From: a virus
Taxonomy: Duplodnaviria; Caudoviricetes
Virus record (IMG/VR): IMGVR_UViG_3300017651_000001
Location: 3,937-67,936 of that record
Reading direction: 5' to 3' (one strand)
Length of the DNA stretch: 64,000 nucleotides
Positions 14,039 to 64,000 of this stretch are shown here, piece after piece. Under the pieces are notes generated by a model, which searched no databases, was not told where the DNA came from, and saw only the letters and a list, made by a program, of their open reading frames with translations. The translations under genes were made by a program, and so were the position numbers. How positions within the stretch are numbered: the stretch's first letter is position 1; each line of letters starts with the position of its first letter.

Positions 14039-14994
14039 GATCCGACCTCCCTGAAGCTCGCGGCGGTCTTCACCCGTCCGCCGTTCGTCGTGGTGATGGT
14101 GCTCCAGGTTGGTGCGGCGGTGAAGCGTGCCCCGCTGTGGCCCATGCCGCCGACCCAGCCGCCTTGCAGTTGCGCGATGATGTCTGCGGTGAATCCTCCG
14201 TAGGGTTCGAGGCCGTAGGCGCCCTGCCCGTACCCCATTGCGGACAGCGGGGCGAGGGAGATGAAGCGGGCCATGATGCCCGCGATGGTGACGGATCCGT
14301 TGCTGGGGCCGTCCTTGCCGACCCAGATCCAAACGCCGGGGATGCCTACCGCGACATCGGTGAGGAGCAGTTCGTCGTCATTGCCGTGCTTGGTGAGCAT
14401 GGTGTCATTGCCGACCTCACCACCGCCGAGGTGCTCGGTCATGAAGACGCCGCCGGATCCGGTGGCCGAGTAGGCCGCGCCGATCACCATCGCGTAGCCC
14501 TCGGGGATGGAGACGTAGGTGGCGTCCTCGACGCCGCGGAACCCGTCCGTGATGTCATTCATGTCGTAGACGGCGGAGCGGACGGGGAGGTTGTGGACTT
14601 CGCGGTCGGCGGTGACGACCGACGTGGGGGTGAGGCCGTAGACGAGCGAGGAGCCCTCGGTGTCGCACGCCATCGAGGGGTCGGCGACGCGGGCGGGGAG
14701 GACGTTGTGCCCGTAGGTGATGGGATCATGGAAGTAGAGCAGGCCACGGCCGTAGGAGCCGTCGAAGTACGACTTGAGAACCTGCACCATCTCGGGGCCG
14801 GAACGCTCGGGCCACTCGAAAGCGTAGGTCTTGTGCGATCCCCACGAGGAGAGCTGGTAGCCGCCGCCGTTGAGCAGCGTGCCGCCGGCGCTCCACGCCT
14901 CGGAGTTCGCCTCCGCCCCCTGCATGGGGGTGGGGAGCCACTGGGAGTGCTCCAGCGTTCCGAACCAGAAGCATCGGTCTGGCGACTGCATCAC
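14023..14994 (-). CDS. Minor tail protein (distal-tail position)
   Basis: First gene after the tape measure. Confidence 0.7.
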   Translation of the reverse strand: MMQSPDRCFWFGTLEHSQWLPTPMQGAEANSEAWSAGGTLLNGGGYQLSSWGSHKTYAFEWPERSGPEMVQVLKSYFDGSYGRGLLYFHDPITYGHNVLPARVADPSMACDTEGSSLVYGLTPTSVVTADREVHNLPVRSAVYDMNDITDGFRGVEDATYVSIPEGYAMVIGAAYSATGSGGVFMTEHLGGGEVGNDTMLTKHGNDDELLLTDVAVGIPGVWIWVGKDGPSNGSVTIAGIMARFISLAPLSAMGYGQGAYGLEPYGGFTADIIAQLQGGWVGGMGHSGARFTAAPTWSTITTTNGGRVKTAASFREVGSWVYG

Positions 14995-24396: not shown

Positions 24397-26109
24397 TCAG
24401 CTCGTCTGGTCCGTGGCGGCGGTGATCGAGCCGCTGCCGTTGTCGGTGAGGGTGCCGCCGTTGCGGCACTGGTTGCCGAAGCGACGGATGCGGTTGCCTC
24501 GGGAGCCGATCAGGATCGAGTTGTGCGACGAGCCGAGATCCGTCTTGAGGACGTTCATGGCGACGAGTACGTCGCCGACCTGCGGGTCTTCCGTGACGCT
24601 GTTGGCGATCTTGATGCCACAGGTCATGTAGTCCTCGGCGCGGTTGTTCGTGATCTGCGAGTAGCTCGTCGGCCCCCAGATGTCGATGGCGATCGTGCCC
24701 TGCCAGATCCGGTTGCCCGAGATGATGTGCCCGGTCCCGGAGCGCGACTGGACTCCGATGCCATCCGACGAGGCGTCGAACATGAGGTCATTGTCGACGA
24801 CGCTGTTGCTGTCGCCGGCGCTCCACGAGACGCCGCGCTTGTTGCCGGTGATCGTGAGCTTGTTGCGCTCGAAGAACGAGCGGGACAGGCTCGACCCGTG
24901 GAGCCCGTGCAACGGGAGGCTGTCGGCGGTGTTGTCGGTGACGCGGACGCCGCTGGCTGCGCCGGAGCCCTGCACCATGTACCCGGTCGCGGGAGCGGGA
25001 TGGTTGGCGAAGTCGACGAGAGTGTTGTGCGTGAAGTGGATGTCGCGACAGTCGCGCACGTAGGCGGTCGACGTGGGGGAGACCTCCCCGGCCGTCGCGG
25101 CCGTGACGACGGTTGTCGTGGCCTGGAAGTAGAGGATGGCCTCGTGCTCGATCGTGCCGGTGGCGGTCTCGCCCGGCGCCCAGAACTGGAAGGTGTTGCG
25201 GCGGACGTGGATGTTGCGCGCGCCGAGGAAGTGCAGCCAGCCCCGCATCGCCGTGGAGGAGGTGGGGCTCGGGTGCCAGCCGTAGACGTAGTTGTCCTCG
25301 AACCAGACCTCTTGCACGAAGCCGTCGTCGGTGGTGAGTGCGGAGCGGTGATTGCCGATTGGGTTCGGCGTGGGGTACCAGGTGCCGCCGACTTCGATGG
25401 GGAGGAAGGCGCACTTCTCGACACGGACACGGCGGGTCGGGAGGCCGTCGTAGGTCGCGCTGGCGTCGGTGGGCTTGGAGGACGATCCGGCGTAGGTGGA
25501 GTGGTCGAGCTGGATGGCTTCGATGTGCTCGCTGTTGCTCGACGGGTTCATGCCGGAGAACGAACAGTTGCCGACGTACACGTCGAGGCACCCGAGCAGG
25601 TCGATGTAATGCCCGCCGCTGTGCATGCCCTCCTCGAAGTGGCAGTCCTCGAAGGTGACGCCCGTGACGTGGTGGAGGTTGAAGATGCAGGAGTAGCCTC
25701 CCGCGTAGTCGCCGCGGATGGTGCCGTTGCGGAAGGTCCAGTTGTTGCCTCCAGAGCCGTAGCCGGGCGCGTCGTCGACGGTGTGGCTGGTGAGCGTGGG
25801 GCCGAGCCCGGCGTGCTGGAGGGTGGCGCCGTTGAAGTCGAGAGTGATGCCCGACAGCGTGGACGGGATGACGAAGGTGCCCTCGTGCAGGTAGGTCTTG
25901 CCCATCCCGAACAGCACGGTCTGGCCGTCCTGGAGTTCGTCGATCGCGGCCTGGATCGCGGCGGTGTCGTCGGTGACGCCATCGCCGACCGCACCGAAGT
26001 CCTCGGGTGTGATCGTGCCGTTCAGGCGACCGCGCACCGCCTGGTCGAATGCGTCACGCTTCCCGAACCAAGGCTTCTCGCCCACTTCGGGCAGCACGGG
26101 GAGGGTCAT
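24397..26109 (-). CDS. Pectate-lyase-like right-handed beta-helix protein (putative depolymerase spike)
   Basis: PEDFGAVGDGVTDDTAAIQAAID and repeated beta-helix Asn ladders. Confidence 0.85.
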   Translation of the reverse strand: MTLPVLPEVGEKPWFGKRDAFDQAVRGRLNGTITPEDFGAVGDGVTDDTAAIQAAIDELQDGQTVLFGMGKTYLHEGTFVIPSTLSGITLDFNGATLQHAGLGPTLTSHTVDDAPGYGSGGNNWTFRNGTIRGDYAGGYSCIFNLHHVTGVTFEDCHFEEGMHSGGHYIDLLGCLDVYVGNCSFSGMNPSSNSEHIEAIQLDHSTYAGSSSKPTDASATYDGLPTRRVRVEKCAFLPIEVGGTWYPTPNPIGNHRSALTTDDGFVQEVWFEDNYVYGWHPSPTSSTAMRGWLHFLGARNIHVRRNTFQFWAPGETATGTIEHEAILYFQATTTVVTAATAGEVSPTSTAYVRDCRDIHFTHNTLVDFANHPAPATGYMVQGSGAASGVRVTDNTADSLPLHGLHGSSLSRSFFERNKLTITGNKRGVSWSAGDSNSVVDNDLMFDASSDGIGVQSRSGTGHIISGNRIWQGTIAIDIWGPTSYSQITNNRAEDYMTCGIKIANSVTEDPQVGDVLVAMNVLKTDLGSSHNSILIGSRGNRIRRFGNQCRNGGTLTDNGSGSITAATDQTS

Positions 26110-26200
26110 TCCCCCAGTCTACCGGCGAGGATAGTCGGATAATTGGAGGCGGTGTACGGGAAAGCGGACACGGGCCGCGCTGTACGAATGATCGGACAGT

Positions 26201-26858
26201 CTAGATCGGGTGAACCGACCAGCAGTCGCGCGCGGGGCGACGGCATAAGATGCACCTCACGTCTCTCCGCTCGATGCAGATACGAATCCCGTACTCGGGG
26301 TCTTCGATGGCGTTGGTGCATACGTTGACGCTGCTCCCGCAACTGTGGACCCGGTAGGCGACTGGGCCGCACGTCGTCCGCTGGTGCCTGAACTGACACT
26401 TCACCTCGTCGTCGAGGATGGACTCGTCGATGATCTCGAGTTCGTGGACCTCGTTCATGCTCGGCTCCTCCCTGTGAGCGGCGCTCTGGCGCAGCAGGTC
26501 GGGCAGTAGACCCCGTAGGGCCGGTAGAGCATGTAGCGGGCGTGGCGGCCATGCCAGAGAGCCCAGGCGAAGAGGATCGGAGCCAGCCACCACTCCACGC
26601 CGCGCGCAGTCCTCATGGTGGGCTGGACCGGCACCATCACGATGCGCTGCGGTTTAGCGTTGGGGCCGTGAGCCGTGCAGGTTCCAGCCATGCAGGCGCT
26701 ACACATACTGATCCTCATCCGCCACCTGCTCGATCGCCTCCGCGAGGGACCAGAATGCTCGACTGACTGCATGTTCGCCGATGCCCTGCTCGGGCGACGG
26801 AGGCTGGGAGTTCCAACGAAGAATGTTCGCGACGCGGCGGAGCTGGTCGGGGGTCATG
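26201..26858 (-). CDS. Three small ORFs downstream of xis, including a Cys-rich ORF at 26201-26458
   Basis: Overlapping start/stop codons. Confidence 0.5.
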
Positions 26859-27048
26859 CCACCATCACCGCCCGGTGCTCGCACTCGTCGCCGCGCATCC
26901 AGGCGTGGAAGCACGCCTCGTCGACGGTCCAGGTGCCGCGCTTCTTGCGCTGCCCGCCGTGCAGGCGGCCCGCCTGAAGCTCCTTCATAATCGTGTAGCG
27001 GGACAGTCCCGACTGCTCGACCATCTCATCCATGCGCAGATACCTCAC
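26854..27048 (-). CDS. xis: Excisionase / recombination directionality factor (MerR-like HTH)
   Basis: YLRMDEMVEQSGLSRYTI...GRLHG...GTWTV; divergent from the integrase. Confidence 0.75.
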   Translation of the reverse strand: MRYLRMDEMVEQSGLSRYTIMKELQAGRLHGGQRKKRGTWTVDEACFHAWMRGDECEHRAVMVA

Positions 27049-27111
27049 CGCGCCTCCCTCCCATTAGTGGACTAATTCCCACGATACGCAACAAGCGATT
27101 AGTGTGCAAGG

Positions 27112-28125
27112 GTGGCGTGGACTCAACAACTCCCCTCGGGAAACTGGCGCGGCCTGTATCGCGGCCCGGACGGCAAGACCCGCTCAGCAGGCACGCATCC
27201 GCACAAGGCGAAAGCGCTCGCCCTTGCGATCGAGCAGGAGGAGCGTGCCAGCCTGCCTGGCTGGCGCGACCCTCGGGCCGCCGGGCGGAAATGGGGCGAC
27301 TGGTGCGACGTGTGGTGGGAGACGCGGAACGTGGCGCCGGGGACGATGAAGCGCGACCAGTCGCCGCTCGAGAGGCATATCAAGCCGTACTGGCGCGACA
27401 AGCCGCTCGCCGACATCACCCGGCATGACGTGAAGGCGTGGGCGGCGCGCATGCGCCGCGAGGGCCTCGCCGAGTCCAGCGTGCTCCGCTACGTCAGCAT
27501 ATTCTCCGCCTCACTGACGGCCGCCGTTGACGCCGAGATACTGTCGGCTAACCCGGCGATGCGGCTGAAGCTGCCGAACGGCGAAGTGGATGTAATGCGG
27601 TTCCTCACCCGCAAGGAGGTGAAGAAGATCCTCCGCGCGACACAGGACGACCGCGACAAGGCGATAATCTCGACCCTGGTCGGGTGCGGGCTCCGCTGGG
27701 GCGAGATGGCCGGCCTCCAGGCGAAGCGAGTCGACATGAAGGCGGGCATGATCCGTGTCGCCGAGACCTGGGACTCCCGCAACCGACAACTCAAGCGCTA
27801 CCCGAAGGGTCGCCGCATCCGCGACGTGCCTCTGCCGCCGAACGTCGCCGAGCGGCTCGAACCGTACCTCTCTCGGCCGATCCTGTTCGAGGGGGTCGAC
27901 ATCGACAACTGGCGCAAGCGGGTCTGGGACGACCTGCCGACCGATGCGCGCATCCACGATCTGCGGCACACCTACGCCTCCTGGCTCCTCCAGAAGGGCG
28001 TCGGCCTGGCTGAGGTTGGACGGCTCCTCGGGCACGCCTCGCCGTCCACCACGCAGCGCTACGCCTTCCTGGCGGAAACGCCGAAGAAGGCGGTCCTGGA
28101 GGCCATCGGAGACCTCGGTGTGTAG
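27112..28125 (+). CDS. int: Tyrosine integrase
   Basis: GLRWGE, HDLRH, LLGH, TQRY catalytic residues. Confidence 0.95.
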   Translation: MAWTQQLPSGNWRGLYRGPDGKTRSAGTHPHKAKALALAIEQEERASLPGWRDPRAAGRKWGDWCDVWWETRNVAPGTMKRDQSPLERHIKPYWRDKPLADITRHDVKAWAARMRREGLAESSVLRYVSIFSASLTAAVDAEILSANPAMRLKLPNGEVDVMRFLTRKEVKKILRATQDDRDKAIISTLVGCGLRWGEMAGLQAKRVDMKAGMIRVAETWDSRNRQLKRYPKGRRIRDVPLPPNVAERLEPYLSRPILFEGVDIDNWRKRVWDDLPTDARIHDLRHTYASWLLQKGVGLAEVGRLLGHASPSTTQRYAFLAETPKKAVLEAIGDLGV

Positions 28126-28371: not shown

Positions 28372-30339
28372 TCACACCAGCGGAACCGTGACGCCGCCCT
28401 GCCGGATCGCCATTCCGGTCACCGGGACGGTCTCGCCGTTTATGCGCACAGCAACTCCGGTGAACGTCACCGTGGAGCCGCCGATCCGCCCCTTGAGGGT
28501 TGGACTGCTCGGTGTGGGGGCAACCACCTCGAGCGTCACCCGCGACACGTCCGACGTGTCGTACCCGGTGAAACCGATAGTGATCTCTTCGCCGGTGTCG
28601 GTGACCTCAACCCACCCGTACTGTGCGACGAGGGTCCCCTCACCTGCCGGGTGGTGCCCCTCCGACCAGAGGTTCGTGAACTCGGGCGGCTCGTCGATAG
28701 TGCCTTTCCACGATGACGTGTTGCGGAACGGGCCAGCGCATAGCGACGGGAATCCGCCCCACGGGTTGTGGGAGCCGTCGTCCGCCGCGATCCCGTGAAT
28801 GTCGCCGTGGATCGTGATGACCCGCCCCACAGCGGACTCAGCAATGTAGTCGCCGAGCTCTTCCCGTTCCTCCGGGAACTCCTTCCACTGGTCGGCTTCG
28901 CCGTCGTAGTCGGGCACGATCCACGCGGAATCCTGCACCCACACCTTAACCGGCTCCGGCTCAACCAGTCGCTCCTTGAACCACGCCTTTTGGGTGGTGC
29001 CCATCTTCGACGTTGACGTGGTGAGGGTGCGGTGGTCGGTGACGATGAACCGCACCCGGCCAACGACGAACGAGTGGTAGAGGGCGTCACTGTTGGGGAG
29101 GGTCGGGTACGGGAACACCTGCTTGTTCGCCGCGAGCATGGGCGCGGTCCACGCGCCGATCTGCGGGTCGCCGCCGTCCGACGAATCATGGTCGGACAGG
29201 ACGCGGGTGGTGGGGGTGGTGGCGAGCAGCGTCCGCAGCGCCTCCGTGTCGTCGAGAACAGCCTCGAGGTCAGCGAGATGGGACGCCTGCGACGTGGACG
29301 TGGAGTCCGGGTAGCCGAAATCGCCCAGGTGGAAGAACAGGTCCGGGTCGCGGGCGAGGATTCGCGCGAACGCGGGCGTGATGTCCTCAGCGGGGTCGTC
29401 GCAGGAACCAAAAGCGAGAGTGAACGACGCCGGCTGCCCAGGGGTGGGGAGAGTGCGGGGGGACCCCATCAGGGCGGTCAGGTGGGGGGTTTCGTCCGTG
29501 TCCTCCATCTCCACCATGTAGTGGTACTGGGTGGCGGGGTCCAGACCGGTCACGACGGACTCGCACCACCCATCCCCGTCCGGGGTGTTCTGCGTCCCGT
29601 ACGTGACATCCTCGGTGACGGCTTCGTCCGTGCCGACCTTGACCCGCACTGCCGCAGCGTTGGTCGTTTTCGTGCGAACCGTGAACCCCTCATCTGTGAC
29701 GGCACCGACGATCGCGTAGGCGAGCGCGGGGGTAGCGGTCCCCCCGTACAGGAGGAGCGTGAGCGCGTGCGGCTCGTACTGGGCGGGAACGGTCCACGCC
29801 GCGGTGCCCACCGACCCCGCGGACACCTCCTGTTCCGCGACACCGACCGACGCGGACCAGCCCCCGCTCTGGTGAGGCTGCACCTGCTGGGCGCGATTCA
29901 GGGTCGCGGCGGTCGGGTAGCCGAGCGGCGACGTGGAGTCGTTCAGGTCGAACACGGCCCGCACACAGCGGGCTTCATCGGTCGCGGTCGCCGCCGGGGA
30001 CGTGACGGAGTGCTGGTCCATGAGCGCGGTTCCAGTGACGCCCGTGTAGCCGCGCACCAGAACCGCAACAGGGTTCGTAGCAGATGACGGCGCATACGAC
30101 CACGACGATCCAGGCGCGCCTGTTGACTCGAACAGCCAGTATCCAGGGTCCGAGGTCGGGGACGTGCCGTCCTCCGCCCACGACTTCACCAGCGTCCACC
30201 CGGACGGCGCGGTTACCGCTTCGTGCCCCGCCGCAACCAGCGCGATCCAGTAGTCGGCACCCGCGGGAGGGGTGACATTGAACGAACCGTCGCCAACGCG
30301 ACCACCAGTCGCCGTCCCAACAACGCTAGGAATCGCCAT
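28372..30339 (-). CDS. Probable virion protein with a PhoD-like phosphatase/phosphodiesterase domain
   Basis: FGSC, DLFFHLGDFGYPD, SDHD, TDHRT, HGDIH; FN3-like YHYMV segment; no signal peptide. Confidence 0.8.
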   Translation of the reverse strand: MAIPSVVGTATGGRVGDGSFNVTPPAGADYWIALVAAGHEAVTAPSGWTLVKSWAEDGTSPTSDPGYWLFESTGAPGSSWSYAPSSATNPVAVLVRGYTGVTGTALMDQHSVTSPAATATDEARCVRAVFDLNDSTSPLGYPTAATLNRAQQVQPHQSGGWSASVGVAEQEVSAGSVGTAAWTVPAQYEPHALTLLLYGGTATPALAYAIVGAVTDEGFTVRTKTTNAAAVRVKVGTDEAVTEDVTYGTQNTPDGDGWCESVVTGLDPATQYHYMVEMEDTDETPHLTALMGSPRTLPTPGQPASFTLAFGSCDDPAEDITPAFARILARDPDLFFHLGDFGYPDSTSTSQASHLADLEAVLDDTEALRTLLATTPTTRVLSDHDSSDGGDPQIGAWTAPMLAANKQVFPYPTLPNSDALYHSFVVGRVRFIVTDHRTLTTSTSKMGTTQKAWFKERLVEPEPVKVWVQDSAWIVPDYDGEADQWKEFPEEREELGDYIAESAVGRVITIHGDIHGIAADDGSHNPWGGFPSLCAGPFRNTSSWKGTIDEPPEFTNLWSEGHHPAGEGTLVAQYGWVEVTDTGEEITIGFTGYDTSDVSRVTLEVVAPTPSSPTLKGRIGGSTVTFTGVAVRINGETVPVTGMAIRQGGVTVPLV

Positions 30340-30342
30340 GCG

Positions 30343-31788
30343 TCACGCCCCCGTATAGAGGAAGATCGTCCCGTCGGGGTAGGAGGACTCGTCCACCGGG
30401 TCGACGATGAACTTCGCCGCCAGGCCAGCAGGCGTCACGGCCCGAGCGGTGTCGGTTCCCGCGACAGCCTCGGCCGTCGTGGCGAGTTCGACGATGCCCT
30501 GCGCGCTCGTGGAGGCGGCGGGGAGGCTCGCCCAGGCGGTGTCGAAGTCGGTGCTCGACTCCTTGCGGAGCCACTGGCCGCTCGTGCCGCCCTCGGGGAC
30601 ACCCTCGCCGTCAGCGCCATCCGCACCGTCGGAACCGTTGGCGCCGTCAGCGCCAGCCGGGCCTGTGATGTCATCGAGGTCGACGAGGTTCTGCCACTCG
30701 CCTTCGCCGAGTCGCCACTGGATGAAGCCGCTGTCGACGCGGAGGGACACCTCCTCGCCGTCGGCACCCGGCGCACCCGTGGCACCGTCAGCTCCATCCG
30801 CTCCATCGGCACCCGCGGGGCCGGTGATGACGCTCAGCGCGACGAGATCGGTCCACTCGGTCTCGCCGACGTAGCGCCACTGGACGTGAGTCGCGCTCGT
30901 CTGGAGTTCGACCTCGCGGCCATCCGCGCCATCCGCACCCGCAGCGCCGGGATCTCCGGGATCGCCCTTCTCGCCCTGCGGGCCCTGGATGGTGCCGACG
31001 TTCTCCCAGTCCTCGCCGGTCCACACGTACAGGTCGCCGCCGATCAGGTAGGCGTCGCCAGCCTCGCCGGAGACGGGCAGCTCGCCCTCGCTCTCGAGCG
31101 ACCCGAGGATCGTGACCCCGGTGCCATCCTCGCCCTTCTCACCCTTCTCGCCCTGCGGACCCTGCGGGCCGGTGATGTCGTCCAGAGAGACGAGCTGGCT
31201 CCACGCCTCATCCGAGGGGTACTTCCACTCGATGTAGCCGGAGTCGACGCGGAGTTCCGGCGACTCGCCATCAGCACCGTCGGCGCCATCGGAGCCGTCG
31301 GCCCCATTGGAGCCGTTCGCGCCGGCGGGGCCGGTGATGTCCTCGAGCGACACGAGCTGCGTCCAGGTCGAGTCGGACGGGTACTTCCACTCGATGTAGC
31401 CGCCACTCACGCGGAGTTCCGGTGACTCGCCGTCTGCACCATCCGCGCCATCGGCGCCGGGCTCGCCGGGCGTGCCGGAGACGGACGAGATCTCCTCAGC
31501 CGTCTTGGCGCTCGACCAAACGCTCGACTCCGACGTGGCGTCATCGTTGATGACCGCGCCCTCGATCGGGTTCTCGGCGAGATAGTCGGCAATTGCCTGA
31601 CCGATCGCCTCTTCGCTGATGTCGGCGCCGATCTGCGATAGGTTGTCGAAGGTGTCGACGCCGTTCCCGACGTAGAGCGTGTTCGTGTCGGTGACGTAGC
31701 CAACTTCGCCCGAGGCGAGGACGGGATTCGCGGACGCCCACTGGGCGGCAGTTCCGCGACGGAACTGGATGAGTGCGTTGCGAGGCAT
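30343..31788 (-). CDS. Collagen-like fibre protein
   Basis: IQFRRGTAAQW..NPVLA.GE N-terminus, Gly-X-Y tracts, four LRV..G.I.W-type repeats, GIVELAT repeat. Confidence 0.85.
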   Translation of the reverse strand: MPRNALIQFRRGTAAQWASANPVLASGEVGYVTDTNTLYVGNGVDTFDNLSQIGADISEEAIGQAIADYLAENPIEGAVINDDATSESSVWSSAKTAEEISSVSGTPGEPGADGADGADGESPELRVSGGYIEWKYPSDSTWTQLVSLEDITGPAGANGSNGADGSDGADGADGESPELRVDSGYIEWKYPSDEAWSQLVSLDDITGPQGPQGEKGEKGEDGTGVTILGSLESEGELPVSGEAGDAYLIGGDLYVWTGEDWENVGTIQGPQGEKGDPGDPGAAGADGADGREVELQTSATHVQWRYVGETEWTDLVALSVITGPAGADGADGADGATGAPGADGEEVSLRVDSGFIQWRLGEGEWQNLVDLDDITGPAGADGANGSDGADGADGEGVPEGGTSGQWLRKESSTDFDTAWASLPAASTSAQGIVELATTAEAVAGTDTARAVTPAGLAAKFIVDPVDESSYPDGTIFLYTGA

Positions 31789-40630: not shown

Positions 40631-42067
40631 CTACTTCTTCGCCGTCGAGCGGGCCTTGGCTCGGCTCTTCGACTGCTTCGCGACCTCCTCGATCGCCTGG
40701 CGCTCTTCGACCTCGATGAGCGTCGTGTCGTGACTCGGCGCGAAGTCGATGCCTTCGTCCTCATCGACCGGCGCCGGGGGTGCTGGCACCGGGTCGGCAT
40801 AAACGGCGGGGTACGCCTCCGCACCGAGAACCGCCCAGTCCCAGATCCGCTGCGACAGTGCCACGATGTCCTGACGGCGCCCGTTGGGGCCGGTTGATCC
40901 CAGGTTGAACGTCTCCGCCGGCGTCTGCGTCCACCAGATCGAATTCTCGTGGACGGGCACGCTGACGTGCTTGGCGAGCACCTCGAAGAACTGCTCGACC
41001 TGCTTCTCGCTCCAGGCGTGGTTGTCACGCAGCTCGGCGTAGGTTCCGGCGAGGATGCGCAGGAACAGCGGCGAGCCGAGGATGGAGATCTGGCGCAGCC
41101 GGTCGGGCGTGAGGAGTCCGTCGATGATCGCTTGGAACTGCGGGAACGCTCGCACCAGGATGTCGAAGAACGTGGTGGTCTTGTTCGCGACCTCCACTTC
41201 GTTCATCTCGCGCTCCATCGCCTTGCCGAAGCGGCCCTCGATGCCGAGGTTGGAGGCGCGGATGATCTCAATGACGTGCCGCGCGGACAGCAGGTACGGC
41301 CCGGTTCGGCCGAGGCGGTCGTTCTCCGGGTCGATCCGGTTGAGCAGGAGCGGGTGCTCGGCGACCAGCACGAAGGCCCGGTTGGCGACCTTACGCTTGT
41401 CGAAGCGCGCCTTCACCGACGCGGAGATGCCCAGCGCGTTGTCGGCGATGTCGAAGAACATCTGACGGTACGAGTTGAGGTCGTCGGTGATGTGAACCTC
41501 GACGGCGACGCGCTCGGCGTAGAAGCGGTCCTGCTTGGCCTCGATCTCCTTGATCGCGCGCTCGGCGTCCTTGATGACCTTGGAGCCCTTGTCCTCGGTG
41601 CGGCGGGCTCGGTTCAGGTGGTCGAGCGCCTTCTGCCGCTCCGTCTCGAGCATCTCCAATGCGAGGTGGAAGCCGAGGATGCGGTGCTGCCCGTCGAGGA
41701 TCTGGATGTCGCCCTGCTTGCGCTTCGGGTAGGAGAGCACGCCGAATTGCGCACTGTTGTCCAGCACGTCGAGGTCAGTTGCGAAGTCGAAGATCGCCGG
41801 GGCTCGCAGGATGAGGCCGGGGATCACCCAGTTCTCGTGCTCGAGGTAGTACTTCGCGAACGATTGAGCATGGTTCAATCGGATCTGCCGGTTGCCGGGG
41901 TTCGGAGCTGCGGGGTTCGGGCGAAGGATGTTGTTGATGATCTCCGCAGGCGTGAGCGCCACGAGGTAGACCGTGCGACCGCCTTGCCGGTATCGGGTTG
42001 CGTAGAACTGCTCATCCGTCGAGTAGGCCGCGATCGGCGCGACCTTCGGCGCAGTTTCAGTGGTCAT
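40631..42067 (-). CDS. DGQHR-domain (DndB/ParB-like) protein
   Basis: GNRQI, IQILDGQHR, QMFFDIADN. Confidence 0.85.
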   Translation of the reverse strand: MTTETAPKVAPIAAYSTDEQFYATRYRQGGRTVYLVALTPAEIINNILRPNPAAPNPGNRQIRLNHAQSFAKYYLEHENWVIPGLILRAPAIFDFATDLDVLDNSAQFGVLSYPKRKQGDIQILDGQHRILGFHLALEMLETERQKALDHLNRARRTEDKGSKVIKDAERAIKEIEAKQDRFYAERVAVEVHITDDLNSYRQMFFDIADNALGISASVKARFDKRKVANRAFVLVAEHPLLLNRIDPENDRLGRTGPYLLSARHVIEIIRASNLGIEGRFGKAMEREMNEVEVANKTTTFFDILVRAFPQFQAIIDGLLTPDRLRQISILGSPLFLRILAGTYAELRDNHAWSEKQVEQFFEVLAKHVSVPVHENSIWWTQTPAETFNLGSTGPNGRRQDIVALSQRIWDWAVLGAEAYPAVYADPVPAPPAPVDEDEGIDFAPSHDTTLIEVEERQAIEEVAKQSKSRAKARSTAKK

Positions 42068-50924: not shown

Positions 50925-53900
50925 ATGGCGAACATGATTACACCGGTTCTTGACCTTGGCGCGCCCGCGCGCGAGCGCGTCGCGCGCATGGCGCAGCTCG
51001 AGCGCGAGTACGAGCGCCGCGCGCACCACGGGCGCGCGTGCCTGAACCCGACGTATTGCGCCGCTAGCGGCGGCGTAGGCGCAGGATGCCGCAACACGCA
51101 CACCCGGAAGGACTGACACCATGCGCACTCGCTATGCACTCGCGACCCTGGCGGTCGGTATCGCCGGCGCCGCTATCGGCGTAGGCGCGACCCTCGCGCT
51201 GACGCCCGCGCCTGTCGCGCCCGCGCCGATCGTGCATGTGGCCGAGCCTGCCACGCCCGCGCCCACGGCGACGCCTGCGGACACGGCATGCCGTGACGCT
51301 GTTGACCTGCTGATCGGCATGCACGACACGGCGCATGCCGAGCTTGTCAACGTCATCCTTGCGGACCTGTACGCCGGTACGCCGCGTGACTGGTCCGACT
51401 ATGAGGCCATGCGCGCACAGCTCGGCAGTGACGCTGAGGCGAACGTCTGGCCTGTCGTGCGGGCTTGCCTGGACACTCACTGACACGTCAACCGATAGCC
51501 ACTAGGGAAGGGCACATCATGGAAATCCAGGTCACACTCACGGGACGCGAGACCATCGATGCGCGCGTCTACATTGACCACGGCATCAACACAAGCGTCG
51601 CCTACGGACTCGCATTCAACGATGACGGCGATGTCGTCGCGGAAACCGACTCGACTCGCTACGGCGGATTCTGTGAGGCGGAGATTGTCTATCACGAGTT
51701 GCACAGACTCATCGCCTGGCGATGGGGGATCGAGTCGGGGGACATCGCCGACGCGCTCGACATGCGCGGCATCATGTGCGACTGCGAAGAGGGCTAGCCA
51801 TGCTCACGCGAATTGCCCACTACCTCGCGTCGCACCTGACGCGCGCCGGCCGCGAGCGACGCCGCTACGCACAGGCGATCATCACCGCATGCGTCGCACG
51901 CTTCGCAGATCCGATCCACTAGGTACACATATAGGCCAATAGGGAAGGCTGGACAATGACCAACCACGACAGCAACGCCGCGCCGCGCGCGTGGGCCGAC
52001 GGGTTCGGCCTCTGGCACGCGGAAGTCCCTGCGACGCATCCGCACCCCGCTACGCTCGCGCGACGCCTCATCCGCCACGAGCTGACCGCACACGGAGAGG
52101 CCAAGCAGGGCTATCGGCTCAAGCTCGACCAGCGCGAGCCCTACACGCCCGGCATGCTCCACTACAAGGAACGATGACCATACCCTCTGAGCGGCCCGCG
52201 AGCGCGCGCCTCAGCGACTCTCGCGGCGGTTCAGTAGGCATGGCCTACTCAAACCATGACAAGCCACTAGAGAGGGGCGATCACGATGCCCTGGCATATC
52301 CTCATCTTCACACTCGCGACACTGGCGACGCTCACGCTGCTGCTTCTCTTTATCAAAGGCGCCTCACGACACATCCACGTCACCGACACCTACGCCGGCC
52401 TTACAGCCTGCCGAGAGTGCGGTCGAATCATCCGCGACGACGCCTCAGAGGACGATTCCCAGCGAACGTCCAGACACCCGAGAGTGTAAACCTGTGTTAC
52501 AAGCAAAACCCGCGGAATCATGCGGAACTTGCTTCGCGAGCCCCTAGAGCATGAAAAGTACCCTAGATTACTGAACTATCAGACTATCTATATGTCTACT
52601 AGGGTATTAGACACTCTAGATACTCTCAGACCTACTTCCGCGGAAAATCAACGATCTAGGTTGTAACATCGGTTTACACTTTTGGCCCTCAGAGCCTAGA
52701 CAACTGAACAGTCCGACTTTTTTTCAGTCGGAACGTCTAGACTTTCCGCCTAGACTTTCCGACCGCCAAAACAGTCCGACAGTCCACTAGTCCGATTGGA
52801 GCATCATGCCGAATCTCGACCGTATCGCCCTCGAAACGCTCACACGCCTCGCGGCAGAGCGGGCGGAGCTGGAAGCACGCCTGAGGGCGAATCTCGACGC
52901 CACGCGCGCAGAGGTCCGCACAGGCTCACGCGCCGGCGTAGCGCTCGCCAAGCTCGCCCGCGCCGCGGGAGTCTCGCGCGTTACGGCGTATCGCTGGCTC
53001 GCGGATTGACTGAACAGCCGACACACGAAAGGATCGCGACCATGAACACTGAGAACCTGCCCTACCGCGTTGAGTACCGATTTCCGAACGGCGAGACAAT
53101 CCACGTCGCCGCATTCGCGAGATGGGACGATGCCCAATGGTTCGCAAGGCGCGACGATGAGGCCGTTGGAGCTTCCTACGCTGATGAAGAGTGTCCCGAG
53201 GTCGTCGTTATCGACACGGCGCAGGGTGCCGAGGACATCGTTACGGAGCGTCGCCAGGCTTGGGAGTAAGCCTGTAAACCCCTTGACAGACAACTGAACA
53301 GTCCACTAATCTAGGCAGTACGAGATAGCCACTAGGGAGGCAATCGAGATGAACATCCAGAACTTGATCGAGGAAGCGCGCTGGCTGCGCTCCGTCGAAG
53401 GCGAGAACCCAGAGTACGATCGCGCACTGGTGGAGCTGGTGGCCGCGTTCCTGCCCGGTGAGAACGAAGAGCGCTACGGGTATCTGTACCCCGTGATTCT
53501 CGATCGCCCGATGCCGGCCTAACCCCCACAAAGTCGAAACGCCGCGAGGCGTCGCTAGGACACCGGCACCCCTGGCCTGATGAGACAGCCGACTAAATCG
53601 CCAGACACGCCACTAGGGAGGGCAATCATGGCAAGGTACGAAACCCACAAGCGAACGTCGCAGGGCAAGGCCCGCACGATCGCACGCAACACGGCCCGCG
53701 CGCTCAAGTATCAGCAGCCGGCGCGCGTCACGACCGCCGGGAGGGCTGCGCGGTGAAGTTCTCACTGGAAATCAAGCTGGGCAACGACGCGAACGGGAAT
53801 CGCGTCGGACAGTGGCGCGTGACCAAGAATGGGGAGGGCTGAGCGATGGGACTCTACCGATACAGCGCGACCGTCAACGGCAAGCGCCGCTCCGTGATGT

Positions 53901-56900: not shown

Positions 56901-58603
56901 TGGCGATGCTGAACTACGCGGCAGGGTGGGCGGCGGCATGACAAATCGCAAACTCGCGCTGCCGGTGAGCATCGGCTGGGCGCTTATCACCGTCGCCGGT
57001 CTCGGCTGGTGGCTCTACTGCATGGCTGGATGAAGGAGGAGAGAGATGACCCATTCAGAATGGCGTGACGCCTACGAGGCGGCGCGAGCGAGGCTTGAGC
57101 CCTGGCTGAGCCGCGACGACGACGGGCAGGTGTGGATCGACATCAACGCGCCCGGCCCGCTGGTGAAGATCTACGTTCAGTTGCAGGAGTTCGGCCTGGA
57201 GCGGGAGTGGCTGCGGCTGGGCGACGAGGCGGGGGAGGCGGCATGACCCTCAGAATCGGAGACCGCGTGACGTTCACACCTGCGGCGCGTGACCTGTTCC
57301 CCGAGGCGCGCGGGCATGGCGTGCTCACCGTCGAGGCCGTGTGGCTCTACGGGAATGTCGGCCTGTCGAACGGGCGGCTCTGGAATCGGGCGTGGCTGGA
57401 GAAGGTGGAATGACGGGCTACCTCTGGCTGGCCGCACTCATCGGCGGCGGGATCGGCCTGGCTCCAATCGTTGTGGGAGAGCTCGGACTCCTCATCCACA
57501 AAATCCGCAACAACAGGAAGGGACAAGAACAATGGGAGACATCGGAAAGCCGTTGAAGCACATCGAGCTGGAGCCGCTGGAGGTTCCGCACGAGGCGCCG
57601 GTGCCGGCGGAGCAGCCGTCGGTGCCGGCGGAGGAGCCGGTGCCGGCATGAATCCGCAATACTGGCACTACGACCCGCCCTACGGCTACGACTATGCGGC
57701 TCAGGTCGCACGACTCAAGGCTGCTGCGGCACAGGTCAAGTCCGCGCCTGCAAAGCCCAAGGTGGATCAGTTCGCCGGCGTGACCGCGGAGTTCGCGGCG
57801 GGTGTTGTGACGGGTACGCGCTCGTTCAGTGTGGACAGGCTGGGCCGCCTCACGGGTGTCACCTACAAGAAGGTCTGGCGCCCCGGCGAGAACGTCGCGA
57901 AGTGCTACCGGAGTGAGGACCACTACCACGCCTTGCTCGGCGGCATCACGATTCGGACCAGCGGGATTGAGCGCACCGACGAGCACGCGATGACCGAGTG
58001 CGACCACGGCTTCTACGCCTACTACGAGGGGTCGAACGACTTCTACGAGGAGGGTCGCATCATGGGCGTCATCGAGGGCTACGGCGAGACGCTGATCGGC
58101 ACGCGGGGCTTCCGGGCCTCGAAGGCGCGGATCGTGGCGCTGCACATCCCGGAGGGCGTGGAGGTTGCCAAGCGCCGCCTCGTCTTGCGGAACTACCCAG
58201 ACATCCCACAGTTCGACTCGTTCGAGGCGATGGTCGAGGCGTTCCCGCCCGATGACGCCGGTCAGGGGATCAACCCGGCGAACGACCCTGACTTCTGGGA
58301 GCGGGAGGCGTGACTGTCATGACCCTCCCCGCCCCGACGTGCATTGAGGAGCGCATCTGGGATGCGCTGAACCTGCACCCCGGCCTGACCGGCCAGCAGC
58401 GCCTCGCGATCTACACGGCGATCACGGCGAAGAGCGCCGATATCGCAGGCTGCGCCTGGGTGTCGGTGTGGACGGCGCGACTCAAGACTGGCAACACGCT
58501 GCGTCATGCGGTGGTGCGCCACAATCCGGGCGTCATGCCCATGACCATGCCGTCGGACGTTCACATCTTGACGGCGCTTGAGAAGGAAGGTACAGAGCAA
58601 TGA
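50925..58603 (+). CDS. Early region of more than 20 small hypothetical ORFs
   Basis: Coupled ORFs; several preceded by a CACTAGGGA(A/G)G-type RBS motif. Confidence 0.6.
52483..52800. other. AT-rich non-coding region with nested inverted and direct repeats (putative replication origin)
   Basis: AGTGTAAACCnnTGTTACAA IR (52483-52502 / 52661-52680), TACCCTAG IR, CTAGACTTTCCG x2, ACAGTCCGAC x2. Confidence 0.55.
52806..53009 (+). CDS. Small HTH DNA-binding protein
   Basis: ALAKLARAAGVSRVTAYRWL. Confidence 0.8.
   Translation: MPNLDRIALETLTRLAAERAELEARLRANLDATRAEVRTGSRAGVALAKLARAAGVSRVTAYRWLAD
53283..53312 (+). promoter_or_regulatory. SigA-like promoter TTGACA-N18-TAATCT with an operator variant CAGTCCACTA
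   Basis: Perfect -35 box. Confidence 0.75.
53533..53591 (+). ncRNA. Type II hammerhead ribozyme
   Basis: GTC-GAA-ACGCC(GCGA)GGCGT-C-GCTAGG(loop)CCTGGC-CTGATGA-GAC: all core nucleotides and three stems present. Confidence 0.85.
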
Positions 58604-59562
58604 GCATCACCGTACGGACACAGGCAGAGCTGGACAAGGCACTCGCCGACAAAGAACCCGCCATCTACATCGAGTCACCCGCGGGTGTGTGGCTGCGGGT
58701 GACCGACACGGGCTCGTCCCACGTCGTGGCTCGGGGCTCGTCCCACGTCGCGGCCTGGGACTCGGCCCGCGTCGTGGCTTCAGGCTCGGCCCACGTCGTG
58801 GCTTCGGAATCGTCCCACGTCGCGGCTCGGGGCTCGTCCCACGTAGAGGCTACGGACTCGTCCCACGTCGAGGCTTGGGGCTCGTCCCACGTCGTGGCTT
58901 GGGACTCGTCCTACGTCGTGGCTTGGGGCTCGGCCCGCGTCGTGGCTTCGGGCTCGTCCTACGTCGAGGCTCGGGGCTCGGCCCGCGTCGTGGCTTCGGA
59001 CTCGGCCCACGTTGTGGCTTGGGACTCGTCCTACGTCGTGGCTTCGGACTCGGCCCACGTTGTGGCTTGGGACTCGTCCTACGTCGAGGCGACCCGCTTT
59101 GTATCCGTTCACCTGCACTCCAAGCGCGTCACGCTCACCGCTTCGGTGGCGGAGCACGTCATCGACGTAACCGACATCAACCTCGAAACCTTGCCCGACT
59201 TCCTCGCCTACCACGGTGTGAAGGTGACGGTCCGCGGGGACGCGGTCCTGTACAAGGCCGTGGACCAGAACCTGCAGGCCGGGCACGGGTACACGCTCAC
59301 TGAGTACCCGATCGGGGGGACGGTGACCGCCCCGGATTGGGAGGCGACGCAGGCGTGCGGGGCCGGGTTGCATTTCGGGTACACGCCGGTCGTGGCGCGC
59401 GGGTACTTCAACGGTGAAGGGGAGCCGAGGTTCTTGGAGGTGCATGTTCCCCTGGAGGGGCTGGTCCCGCTCGGGGATAAGGCGAAGGCGGAGTCGTGCC
59501 TGGTGGTGCGTGAGGTGGACCTGTACGGGCGCCCAGTCGCTGCCGAGGAGGTGGCGTCATGA
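58600..59562 (+). CDS. Octapeptide-repeat (beta-solenoid) protein with a C-terminal YKAV...CGAGLHF domain
   Basis: 16 x S[SA][HRY]V[VAE]A[RWST][GDER]. Confidence 0.8.
   Translation: MSITVRTQAELDKALADKEPAIYIESPAGVWLRVTDTGSSHVVARGSSHVAAWDSARVVASGSAHVVASESSHVAARGSSHVEATDSSHVEAWGSSHVVAWDSSYVVAWGSARVVASGSSYVEARGSARVVASDSAHVVAWDSSYVVASDSAHVVAWDSSYVEATRFVSVHLHSKRVTLTASVAEHVIDVTDINLETLPDFLAYHGVKVTVRGDAVLYKAVDQNLQAGHGYTLTEYPIGGTVTAPDWEATQACGAGLHFGYTPVVARGYFNGEGEPRFLEVHVPLEGLVPLGDKAKAESCLVVREVDLYGRPVAAEEVAS
58714..59097 (+). repeat. 24-bp coding tandem repeat, 16 units
   Basis: Consensus TCGTCCCACGTCGTGGCTTGGGAC. Confidence 0.9.
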
Positions 59563-59927: not shown

Positions 59928-60557
59928 ATGAGCAATCTCACCCCCGAGCAGCAGAAGGCGCTGGACGAGCTGGCGTCGCTGGATCAGAAGTACCGGCAGG
60001 GCAAGGTGGAGGCGCACGCCCGGCATCGCCGCTTGGCCGATGAGGAGATCCACGACCTGAAGCTGGCGCGCGACATCGCGGCGGCGCGGGCGGGCGCGCT
60101 GGGCGTGCCGAAAATCCGCATCGCGCAGGACGGCCTGCACACGACGCATGTCCAGGCGGCCCGGAAGGCGATCGCGAGCGGCGAGGCGGTGCTGGCGCCG
60201 GCGGTCAGCCTGAGTGACATCGAGGCAGTTGGGGCACTCGGCAAGCGCTTGGGCATCAAGCCCAGCGAGGAGTTCGCCGAGACGGTCGCCCAGTTCACCG
60301 CCGACCCGAACCTGCTTCTCTCGTCGCCCGGCGTCGTGTCCGTGACGCTCCGCGAGGCCGACTTCCGCGCCTTCGGCATCGAGGAGGAGGGCACGGCCGA
60401 GTGGCTGTTCACCGTCTCCGAGGACGGCGTGGTGCAGCCGGTGGACGGCGAGAAGGATGAGACCTGGACGCACCCGGTCGTGCAGGTTGTGATGGGGCAG
60501 GATGACTCCTGGCGGCGGCGGATTGTAGGGTTCGCTCGGAAGGAAGGTGAGGAGTGA
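59928..60557 (+). CDS. Hypothetical protein
   Basis: ORF with SD GAAGGAG. Confidence 0.65.
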   Translation: MSNLTPEQQKALDELASLDQKYRQGKVEAHARHRRLADEEIHDLKLARDIAAARAGALGVPKIRIAQDGLHTTHVQAARKAIASGEAVLAPAVSLSDIEAVGALGKRLGIKPSEEFAETVAQFTADPNLLLSSPGVVSVTLREADFRAFGIEEEGTAEWLFTVSEDGVVQPVDGEKDETWTHPVVQVVMGQDDSWRRRIVGFARKEGEE

Positions 60558-60735
60558 TGGGACAGCCGTACAAGGTGCGCCACACGATGCAGTACACGGA
60601 AGTCGTCTACTACGACGGGAGCGGCAACGAACTTGAGCGCGACCGCATCTACGACGACCACACCTACGACACTGGCGAGCGCGAACCGCTGGACGACCAC
60701 GACCGAGACATTCTCGGCATCGAGGATGAGGGGGC

Positions 60736-62343
60736 TTGATGACGGCGGTTGATCGCCTCACACCCCGCCCGGACCAGGAGGAGTCCATTGTCCGCATCCT
60801 GGCGGAGCCGACAAAGGCGGCCCTGATCGCGGATGAGACGGGCTTCGGCAAGACTCTGATCGCGTCCGAGGTCGTGGTGCGGGCGGGCTGGCAGCGCGTG
60901 CTGTTCATCGGAATCGGTGCGACGTTCCAGCAGTGGAAGGATCGGCTCGAGGCTCAGTCGGACGGGCGCATCCAGCTCCGCCGCCTGGATTCGTCGAAGC
61001 CGGGCCGTGAAGCGTTCGACGCCTTCCTCGCCGGGGCACCGGGGCACTACTTCGCGACGATCCAGTGGCTTACCCAGCAGGACGTGGTATACCGCGACAA
61101 GGTGGACCTGCGCGGCAAGCCGGTCTGGAAGGTGAAGAAGTCCACGGGCGAGATCATCCTGAAGGACCGCAAGGAAGGCTCGATCGGCCCCGCGCAGGAG
61201 CCGGTGCGGGAGCGGCAGCGCGTCCGACTGGACACGTTCAAGAAGATGAGCGCCCGCAAATCCGGCCCGGTGGATGCGATCATCTTCGACGAGTCACATG
61301 CGATCGCGAACCGTGACAGTCAGGGCCGAAAGACGTTGGTGAGCATCGCGACGGAGTGGAAGATCGCGATGAGCGCGACGTGGGCGGGCAACTCGTTCGA
61401 GTTCGCCTGGAGCACTACGAAATGGCTGTGGCCGGACCTCATCCCGGCGTACTGGACGTGGCATGAGCAGTGGTGCCACATGCGGCCGAAACTCGACGAG
61501 GACGGCAAGCCCGTCCGCCGCAAGGGTGGCATGGTTGTGCAGGAACTCGTCGGCGAGAAGGAGCCCGAGGGGACGTTCGTGCGGTCCCTGCCGCTGTACC
61601 TGCGCCGCGAGCGGCCCGAGAAGGCGCCGGAGCCGATTGTGGTGGTTGTGGATGCGACGCCGGAGCAACGGGCGCAGTACGAAGATCTCAAGGAGGATCT
61701 GCTCACTTGGGCGATGAACTTCGAGGGCGACCATGAGCCGCTGGTTGTGGACATTCCGGCGGTGCTGCGGATGCGCCTGCGGCAGGTGGCGCTGGCGGAG
61801 TTGTCGCTCGGCGCGGATGGCGATGTCGTCTTCGCCCCGACTGCGGCATCGGCGAAACTGCGAGCGCTGAAAGGCGTCATCGACTACTGGGGCGATCAGC
61901 CGGTGGTGCTGATGACGGACTCCGAGAAGTTCGCACGCCTGACGGCTGAGCGTATGACGGCCGCGGGGTATAAGGCGGAGGCGTGGACGGGGAAGACGAG
62001 CGAGAAGGAGCGGGCTCGAATCAAGGCTTCGTTCCTTGCCGGCGAGTTCAAGTACCTCGTAATGACAGTCCAGTCGGGCGGGACCGGCGTCGACGGCCTT
62101 CAGACGGTGTGCTCGAAGATCATCTGGCTGTCGGTACCGGATGGTGACCCGAAGCTGGAGGAGCAGGCGCTCGGCCGGGTGTTCCGGCCCGGCATGACGG
62201 AGAAGTACGGCCCGTTCGAGCAGGTGCGGCTGCTCATGCGGGACAGCGTGGACGTTGACGTGCTCGAGAACCTGATCTCGAAGGGCCGCGCCATCCGCGG
62301 CTCGATCGGCGCCGCCGCACTGGCGCAGGGTAGTGGACTATAG
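60736..62343 (+). CDS. SNF2-like superfamily 2 helicase
   Basis: ADETGFGKT, DESH, SATW, GTGVDGLQ, QALGRVFRPG. Confidence 0.9.
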   Translation: MMTAVDRLTPRPDQEESIVRILAEPTKAALIADETGFGKTLIASEVVVRAGWQRVLFIGIGATFQQWKDRLEAQSDGRIQLRRLDSSKPGREAFDAFLAGAPGHYFATIQWLTQQDVVYRDKVDLRGKPVWKVKKSTGEIILKDRKEGSIGPAQEPVRERQRVRLDTFKKMSARKSGPVDAIIFDESHAIANRDSQGRKTLVSIATEWKIAMSATWAGNSFEFAWSTTKWLWPDLIPAYWTWHEQWCHMRPKLDEDGKPVRRKGGMVVQELVGEKEPEGTFVRSLPLYLRRERPEKAPEPIVVVVDATPEQRAQYEDLKEDLLTWAMNFEGDHEPLVVDIPAVLRMRLRQVALAELSLGADGDVVFAPTAASAKLRALKGVIDYWGDQPVVLMTDSEKFARLTAERMTAAGYKAEAWTGKTSEKERARIKASFLAGEFKYLVMTVQSGGTGVDGLQTVCSKIIWLSVPDGDPKLEEQALGRVFRPGMTEKYGPFEQVRLLMRDSVDVDVLENLISKGRAIRGSIGAAALAQGSGL

Positions 62344-62550
62344 GATGCCTGGACGGAAGGGGAACGAGATGGATTGGACATGGGAGTTCGGGGTTCGGTT
62401 CGCTGAGGACTCATGGGTGACGCCGGTCATGGGTGGCGCCGAGCGTGCGGTGCGGATGGCGGATGCCGAGCAGGGTGACCGGGTGTACCGTCGGCGCCGG
62501 TGTGGCTGGCTCCGGGGTCCGTGGTCCCCGCTTGGCGAGGCGGGTGCGGC

Positions 62551-63003
62551 ATGAACCGCTGCGGGGCGACCTCACTGGCGTTGTCGGCGGCTGTGCTGGC
62601 GGGGCTGGCGGCGGGGTGGATCTCGTCGCACGCTGCGCCTGTGGCGCCTGAGGAGCCCGCCCGGTTCGCGGTGTCGGGCACGATCCGCTGGGTGGACAGC
62701 GAGACATGGATCGCGCTGAACGATGCGGGGCATCGCCCGTCGGGCATCGCGTCGGTCGAGCCGCTGGCGGATCGGGTGCGGGTGACGTATTCGGAGTGCG
62801 CGGAGAAGGTGGGGCATCTTCAGGCGACGCCGGATGAGCAGTTCGCCGCGGCGGGTGTGCGCGTGGGGGCGTCAGTGGGGCTCTGCTATGCGGACGTGTT
62901 CTTCTACATGGGCGCGAGTGATGTGCCGGTGAATCCGGGACTGCTGTCGCGGCAGGGTGCGAACGTGTGGCTGTCCGGCGAGTTCGACCGGGTGGCGCAA
63001 TAG
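62551..63003 (+). CDS. Exported protein homologous to the C-terminal domain of fibre 21996-23072
   Basis: Signal-peptide-like N-terminus; shared AL.D.GH.P.GI, KV..L....DE..A..G...GASVGL and AN.W..G. Confidence 0.75.
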   Translation: MNRCGATSLALSAAVLAGLAAGWISSHAAPVAPEEPARFAVSGTIRWVDSETWIALNDAGHRPSGIASVEPLADRVRVTYSECAEKVGHLQATPDEQFAAAGVRVGASVGLCYADVFFYMGASDVPVNPGLLSRQGANVWLSGEFDRVAQ

Positions 63004-64000
63004 TCCACTAATGAGTAGGATGCCCAGTAGAAATCCTGCTGGGCGGAAGGGAGGGTGTGAGCGATGACCACCGACAAGACCGAACTCCTCGGCCAAATCG
63101 TCGAGGTGCGGAACCCAAACATTGACGACTGGGTATGGCGTGGCCGGGCGATTGCGATCGCACGGGAGCCGTCCATCATCATCGAGGATAAGACCGGGGC
63201 GCGCCACACGCTTCCGCTGGAGTGGGCGCGGCCGGCGGAGGAGATCCAATGACCCAGCCCGAACCGCAGTCGTCCCGCAAAACCCGCATCCCGATGTTGA
63301 GGTCGGGGCATTGCGAGCATCCGTCGACGCCTGAGCATCCGGGGTGCAGGCTCGCGAGCTGCGCGTGTGGGTGTCATTGCGGCGCCGAATCGACCGAACA
63401 GGAGAAGCCATGACCGACGAGCGAGTCGTGTACGCGGTCAGCAAGGGGTCGTACTCCGACGACGAGCGCGATCTCGCGCAGGCGCTGTTTCGGACGCTGT
63501 ACGACGCCGGGGTGTCGTTTCAGTCCGGTGATCTGATCCCGCGACTCACCGCGACGGTCCGCGCTGCTGGTTTCCGCCGACAGGGGCCGATCACCGACGA
63601 GTGGGAGTACGCGGTCGCTGAAGTGCTGAGTGGCGAGTTGTACGTCTACGACATGAAGGAGTGCTTTACGGAGGCGGAGGCGCGAGCGCAGCGCGTTGAG
63701 GACGACGACATCATTGTGCGCCGTCGTAAGGCCGGCCCGTGGGAGCCCGTTCCGTCTACCACCGAACAGGAGGGCGACCGTGGCTGAGGTAGTGACGATC
63801 TACACCGTGAGGCGCGACCCCTACACGGCGGCGGCGAAGAACTCTGCCGGTTACGGCTCGCCGGAGTTCGAGTACGCCGCAGAGAGTGCAGGTGAGGCGC
63901 AGCGGAAGGCGATCGACGACTGCACGTGGCGGGACCCAAAACGCCACTTCCGATTCAACGTCATCGGCTCGCGGGTGGTCGTTGTCGGGACCGAACCGAC

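Follow-up and report, generated by a model that had tools for sequence, protein, structure and literature searches.

The window, i.e., the whole stretch of 64,000 nucleotides that was analysed, contains on its plus strand an ORF (62551-63003) coding for a protein of 150 residues, P0001. This protein is composed of (i) a signal-peptide-like N-terminus; (ii) a Pro-rich linker; (iii) a domain resembling the tip of a virion fibre. The features of the locus and those of the fibre encoded elsewhere in the window are collected in Table 1.

Table 1. Coordinates (window numbering) of the gene for P0001, its surroundings and the related fibre gene.
Feature	Position	Strand	Basis
Fibre/minor tail protein P0002 with homologous tip domain, 358 aa	21996..23072	-	
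Inserted all-beta subdomain of the fibre tip, ~98 aa	22074..22370	-	
Helicase gene upstream, in frame with gene 62551-63003 at the 7-bp repeat	60739..62343	+	
Accessory cassette of 672 bp (61-aa ORF and gene 62551-63003)	62321..62992	.	absent in close relatives
Operator-like palindrome and 9-bp repeat with -10-like box (62341), left end of the cassette	62331..62349	+	
61-aa ORF, its stop overlapping the 62551 start	62369..62554	+	
Gene for P0001, signal-bearing protein of the fibre-tip family	62551..63003	+	ORF, homologs
Predicted Sec signal peptide or uncleaved anchor, residues 1 to ~28	62551..62634	+	hydropathy/charge rule
Beta-sandwich domain, residues 38-146, fibre-tip homologue; lectin-like fold predicted	62662..62988	+	
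Second copy of the operator-like palindrome and 9-bp repeat, upstream of gene 63064	63001..63024	+	

The export test is a rule of hydropathy and charge made for this analysis, not SignalP. It finds in P0001 a charged n-region, a hydrophobic h-region and a small-residue c-region, and Sec export, with or without cleavage, is predicted on this basis. Residues 1-20 have a low confidence in the AlphaFold2 model. Cys is found at positions 4, 83 and 112 only, i.e., there is no lipobox, and P0001 was rejected as a lipoprotein. Translation of the gene is likely coupled to that of the 61-aa ORF, which weakly resembles 63410-63787 (E 0.001). Another signal-type protein with a Pro-rich linker, a low codon score and no Pfam family is encoded at 51121-51483 (+).

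The window covers most of a record of 67,936 bases. The first 100 bases of this record recur at 67,813, thus the genome is likely complete and circular. It has genes for a tape measure protein, a portal, a terminase, a tyrosine integrase and an excisionase-like HTH protein, and the integrase suggests a temperate life style. The best matches of the capsid are Microbacterium phages (~29%) and the host is presumably an actinobacterium. Scans with the helicase, the capsid and the fibre gave no relative beyond one 100% identical record. The integrase and the excisionase-like gene (26143-28125) are localized inside the structural operon, between the head genes and the tailspike. A DndB-family protein (40631-42067, minus strand, E 4e-25) is encoded downstream of an operator-like site and immediately upstream of the terminase genes. 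A PhoD-like phosphatase (28372-30339, minus strand) lies among the virion genes, and similar N-termini are found in two other loci, L006 (6790) and L012 (12582). The product of 58600-59562 (+) combines 8-residue repeats with DUF7666 (E 2e-9).

The gene is a moron-like accessory which close relatives lack at this position. Contigs of X4, X7 and X8, from three studies, with closely matched flanks, join 62320 to 62993, i.e., 672 bases are skipped, and a 7-bp repeat is shared at the joint. This joined, cassette-less form is found in three of the four sequencing runs compared; X2, possibly from the same campaign as the source, contains the cassette unchanged. Both cassette ends bear the 7-mer, the palindrome and the 9-bp repeat, and the cassette was presumably gained or lost through recombination at these repeats. 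Since the helicase and the gene for P0001 form one frame at the joint, the helicase of the relatives would end on the closing codons of that gene. The arrangement is comparable to PeSL shuffling in T4-type phages, where, in the cited passages, optional genes are gained or lost at repeated regulatory elements (PMC2839356). It differs from PeSL in that the cassette repeat contains an operator-like palindrome and a -10-like box, and that no terminator was found behind the gene; no consensus (full sigma-70) promoter was found in 60500-64000. Further joints are observed in relatives at 63055-63752, a second variable stretch on the right of the cassette.

The gene could be a recently captured passenger without benefit to the window phage, carried by recombination between the operator repeats. 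The cassette-less form is indeed the dominant variant in three studies, X4 holds a cassette-bearing variant at low depth only (~5 vs 80), and the codon use is foreign: the codon score of the gene is the second-lowest among the 63 window genes of at least 90 aa. On the contrary, the frame is intact and every family-invariant residue is present, the cassette is also found in an independent study (two contigs, with 14 differences in each), and the family is old and conserved. A passenger is considered improbable.

The operators reported at 62331 and 63001 in the preliminary description are real but they are not specific to the gene. The palindrome TAGTnnACTA has 20 matches with at most one mismatch versus 0.74 expected, and 16 of 32 near-matches are perfect, the two reported sites included, and spread genome-wide at gene junctions; operators as a special feature of this gene were therefore rejected. 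The site at 62331 is localized 220 nt upstream of the gene, ahead of the 61-aa ORF. That at 63001 overlaps the stop codon, it is therefore upstream of the next gene, to which it belongs. By visual inspection, a near-match at 53299 lies between TTGACA and a -10-like box, a placement which suits a repressor site. The gene 52806-53009 (67 aa, site upstream, no Pfam match) could encode the palindrome-binding protein. Sites in both the structural and the early arms (e.g., 10796, 18532, 27065 and 42091) have a fixed GG/CC centre, and they often overlap -10-like boxes.

The ORF and the fibre are as initially described, and the three segment pairs quoted at that time are present in the translations. 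Homology of P0001 with the tip of the fibre P0002 is confirmed by: (i) BLASTP, with 25 identical residues out of 65 (38%, E 8e-10), the alignment covering residues 166-230 of the fibre; (ii) the match of both proteins to the tail fibre phrog_24580 (E 4.9e-4 for P0001 and 1.7e-16 for P0002); (iii) the pairwise comparison of the profiles of the two subfamilies, which align at 99.95% (E 2.4e-38). As also described, P0001 lacks the shaft and an internal subdomain of the fibre; the size of this subdomain is however ~98 aa (span from F117/Y230 to P129/P340 between P0001 and the fibre) and not ~85 aa. The insert is colinear with the core profile over 88 columns, which is not significant (probability 1.8%, P 0.028), and there is only a hint that it is a nested second copy of the core.

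On the other hand, the idea that P0001 is a copy of the phage's own fibre domain has to be abandoned. P0001 shares up to 69% identity with other signal-bearing forms, versus 32% with its own fibre, which ranks 191 among 211 relatives; a recent duplication was thus rejected. A joint clade of P0001 and its own fibre was rejected as well (p-AU 0.00015, on a subset of 44 rows, i.e., short and fused rows plus 12 signal rows, with three truncated or mis-started rows excluded). The 14 rows nearest to P0001 have 63-69% identity over 107 columns, and 12 of them are signal-type. In the other paired genomes, exported forms are 48-58% alike between lineages and only 25-37% to any fibre. P0001 is nearer to insert-less fibres than to its own insert-bearing fibre, and ~39 kb separate the two genes (window coordinates).

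A first homolog search with P0001 gave 44 sequences at E<=0.001 and a profile search 1,654 representatives at the same threshold, of which the best 150 were listed. A search for longer homologs gained two among 8,000 candidates scored. The 212 rows classed (search hits, locus translations and four GenBank fibres, with few duplicates) are distributed in 87 signal-type, 43 short stand-alone, 41 fused without insert and 41 with insert. Judged by homology and invariant residues, P0001 belongs to the phrog_24580-type fibre-tip domain family. The insert is absent from all signal-type rows (0/87).

The signal-peptide-like N-terminus first noticed in P0001 is an export-type N-terminus found family-wide according to the hydropathy and charge rule. 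This rule is passed by 78 of the 106 insert-less rows with an extension of 22-110 aa, but by no insert-bearing row (0/38), and two of the 63 genes in the window pass it; the pass rate of the signal class itself (79/87) is circular, a similar rule having defined that class. The linkers of the signal forms are rich in Pro, Thr and Ala. AxA-like sites (a loose pattern) are found in 77 of the 87 signal-type members and a lipobox-like Cys in 13. Some of the short rows are signal forms with a wrongly assigned start, such as P0034, which is the L020 gene; four short forms (L005, L011, L019 and L026) have no space for a signal.

Nine residues (R46, W53, D58, H61, D95, E96, S108, N138 and W140) are conserved in 88-100% of 211 rows. 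These polar or aromatic positions are common to fibres and exported forms alike; they may correspond to a shared ligand site, or else to a structural network. A minimum of 14 switches between the fused and the signal-bearing state is counted on the full FastTree tree, for signal and fused rows with short rows left out, without shuffle control and with many weak branches. This suggests, rather than proves, repeated origins of the signal-bearing form.

No Pfam family corresponds to the domain and no lectin Pfam family was matched among 45 members. The domain is found in 24 of 50,697 GenBank phage records, all from Arthrobacter or Rhodococcus phages, in genes annotated as tail, fibre, hydrolase or hypothetical. 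None of these 24 records showed the signal-bearing form, and five signal-type queries matched no other record. The minor tail or fibre proteins of these phages (Beagle gp50 and gp42, Shambre1 gp20 and gp50, Mendel gp16, E3 gp86) belong to the same sequence family. Those of Beagle and Shambre1 are long, signal-less and insert-carrying, whereas P0001 is short, signal-bearing and insert-less; the second copies of the domain in Beagle and Shambre1 are fibres. In Shambre1 (L001), two minor tail genes (14553-16567), one of them with a phrog_24580-type tip, are localized among replication genes, outside the structural operon. Few bacteria have the domain: with the query genome counted, it is present in 1 of 401 genomes at the family level and in 2 of 401 at the class level, and these counts led to the rejection of a common bacterial gene.

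AlphaFold2 predicts an all-beta domain for residues 38-146 of P0001 (pLDDT 89) and a two-part structure for the 217 aa of the fibre tip (pLDDT 93), with the same fold in both. When compared to viral models with Foldseek, this fold matches Arthrobacter minor tail proteins and tailspikes (top five at E<=1.5e-6, three of the five being named Arthrobacter minor tail proteins). The top row of the comparison with solved chains is WSSV VP37, an unrelated viral envelope protein (Z 7.0, rmsd 2.9, 95 aligned). Nine of the ten top rows are fibre or tailspike tips or H-type lectins (Z 5.1-6.6): phiAB6 tailspike (Z 6.6, rmsd 3.4, 91 aligned), AP22 gp53 (Z 6.4, rmsd 3.0, 80 aligned), R1 pyocin fibre (Z 6.1, rmsd 3.8, 82 aligned), SLL-2 (Z 6.0) and snail agglutinin (Z 5.2), LKA1 gp49, Pam1 and phi297 tailspikes being also among the best rows. 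Since no Z reaches 8, a lectin-like beta-sandwich is likely rather than proven. Foldseek searches of the PDB with the P0001 and fibre models gave nothing at E<=0.001, the PDB sequence search gave a single match (E 0.51), and the Atlas features yielded no usable hit, their best structure row being a phage tail protein (TM 0.47).

The predicted likeness to AP22 gp53, the R-pyocin foot, the C-terminal domain of LKA1 gp49 and H-type lectins is one of fold (rmsd 3.0-4.0, 76-95 aligned), identities ranging from 1 to 15%. Moreover, AP22 gp53, the R-pyocin foot and LKA1 gp49 are virion-bound, at the end of a shaft, whereas P0001 is stand-alone. According to the cited passages, sugar binding by lectin-fold fibre tips has been proposed and is not general (10.1101/518761; PMC6363177; PMC5701251).

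An exported enzyme, altering the surface glycan by means of an active site made of the invariant His and Asp together with the Ser of a G-x-S-x-G motif, appears very improbable. H61, D95 and S108 are conserved at 99%, 100% and 100%, respectively, and the motif (G-A-S-V-G) is presumably reminiscent of serine hydrolases. Nevertheless, the predicted fold matches no hydrolase, and the strand order of the model suggests that D95 and S108 would be at opposite ends of a hairpin.

Loci are available for 12 lineages of the signal form. The early arm named in the preliminary description is correct for the window, where the gene lies among early or replication genes as in one other lineage (L014/15), but it is only one of several locations. 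In five lineages the gene occupies moron-like places: within a tRNA array, with its own near-consensus promoter (11/12), in L003; behind the late genes in L006; pointing towards the late operon's end in L008-L010, L012 and L018. It is found directly behind tail genes in four lineages (L007, L017, L020 and L021), and the L022 contig is too short for placement. The tRNA array of L003 (6886-11529) comprises 24 tRNA genes and is interrupted by the signal-bearing gene. As for co-occurrence, an insert-bearing family fibre accompanies the signal form in three of the six lineages searched over whole records, i.e., the window and two others (G004 and G006-8), thus the pair recurs; on the contrary, no family fibre was found in the other three: G001/2 (68% complete), G005 (70%) and G010 (a Microbacterium MAG).

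The four lineages with the gene behind tail genes, and before or near lysis genes, would agree with a membrane-anchored accessory of tail assembly or lysis. In this case the hydrophobic N-terminus would serve as an anchor, and the domain would act in trimerisation or as a scaffold instead of masking a receptor. The same slot is also filled by signal-less forms of 110-120 aa (L005, L011, L019 and L026). In the cited passages, KP32gp38 needs its lectin-like domain for trimerisation (PMC13082707) and a dispensable lipoprotein modulates D29 lysis (10.64898/2026.08.27.747656). Such a role is however unlikely: the gene is dispensable in close relatives, 7 of 12 lineages place it far from or against the late operon, AxA-like sites are frequent, and none of the 24 GenBank records which contain the fibre showed the signal-bearing form.

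The moron-like places at prophage ends, in L008-L010, L012 and L018, rather recall an exported surface lectin with another role, i.e., adhesion, aggregation or biofilm formation of the infected or lysogenic cell (lysogenic conversion). The three lineages without family fibre and the lipoprotein-type members go in the same direction, as does a distant form of the domain (E 8e-7) in a lipoprotein encoded among apparently chromosomal actinomycete genes (L029, 1195-1827). This role seems rather unlikely, given the rarity of the domain in bacteria and the position of the window gene, which follows an operator-like site in an arm of lytic appearance.

The best explanation, to which a probability of about 0.4 is given, is that the exported lectin occupies a surface glycan and blocks adsorption. 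The following steps are proposed: (i) an optional cassette encodes a stand-alone relative of the fibre tip with a predicted export signal; (ii) it would be expressed from an operator-controlled promoter during lytic growth of the window phage, if the upstream palindrome is a repressor site; (iii) the exported domain would form a trimer; (iv) it would bind a wall glycan; (v) adsorption to the infected cell and its debris would be lost. Masking would thus stop superinfection and keep the progeny off lysed wall. For the members at prophage ends, expression in the lysogen is as likely. The glycan would be hidden either from the phage's own progeny or from competitor phages, and is not necessarily that of its own fibre; as insert-less fibres resemble P0001 more than its own fibre does, competitors may be the target.

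In favour of masking are the homology and the predicted fold, the export-type N-termini, the residues conserved in fibres and exported forms, the accessory nature of the gene, its pairing with a family fibre in three of six lineages and the changes of state counted on the tree. Several observations count against masking. In addition to the three lineages without family fibre, the 32% identity of P0001 to its own fibre, the rejected joint clade and the fold Z-scores below 8 with an unrelated protein on top, (i) the insert, absent from signal-bearing forms, could be what sets specificity; (ii) the genome encodes further receptor-binding candidates, a beta-helix tailspike (24397-26109) and a collagen fibre (30343-31788), and P0002 may not be the main receptor-binding protein of the window phage; (iii) four signal-bearing genes lie directly behind tail genes. 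Masking would demand a large amount of protein, wall glycans being abundant. In the cited passages, the soluble head of AP22 gp53 failed to inhibit AP22 (10.1101/518761), and the lectin-like domain of KP32gp38 serves for trimerisation, not for capsule binding (PMC13082707). The wider proposal, that phages of several host groups have repeatedly detached the sugar-binding tip of a fibre, added a signal or lipid anchor and share it as a mobile cassette shielding the receptor glycan from outside, is possible although doubtful.

Llp/Cor-type genes sit beside the gene of the receptor-binding protein, unlike the gene for P0001, far from the fibre gene. As described in the passages cited, T5 Llp and Cor are small envelope-targeted phage proteins which prevent adsorption both to the infected cell and to fragments left by lysis; the lipoprotein Llp, distinct from the receptor-binding protein pb5, acts on the periplasmic side, where it locks the protein receptor FhuA (PMC9586334; 10.64898/2026.03.26.714494). 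P0001 differs from Llp by the lack of a lipobox and by its fibre-tip descent, and it would bind a glycan. The anti-Kronos genes, which according to the cited passages protect the progeny of lysogens, are a parallel for masking (10.1101/2024.03.05.583538). The anti-Kronos systems Zip, LESphi3 gp50 and JBD44 gp40-41, as well as P-FimU, retune, replace or chemically modify a host part, and none is described in these passages as an exported fibre-tip domain (10.1101/2024.03.05.583538; PMC12952977).

A full-text search of the accessible literature gave no exported fibre-tip paralog; gene-screen tables could hold an untitled case. The family is real and previously undescribed; its anatomy is clear, its function putative, and exclusion from outside by a fibre-tip derivative would be a way of blocking infection not found in print. 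The receptor-blocking phage proteins cited above belong to systems of Gram-negative hosts and have no kinship with the receptor-binding protein. Masking, if true, would be a self-matching block of a glycan receptor in Gram-positive hosts. It would also account for some of the many small signal-bearing phage genes of unassigned function, and the proteins, small and probably soluble, could serve to probe the wall receptors of actinobacterial phages. The presence or absence of the cassette in near-identical phages is a natural comparison.
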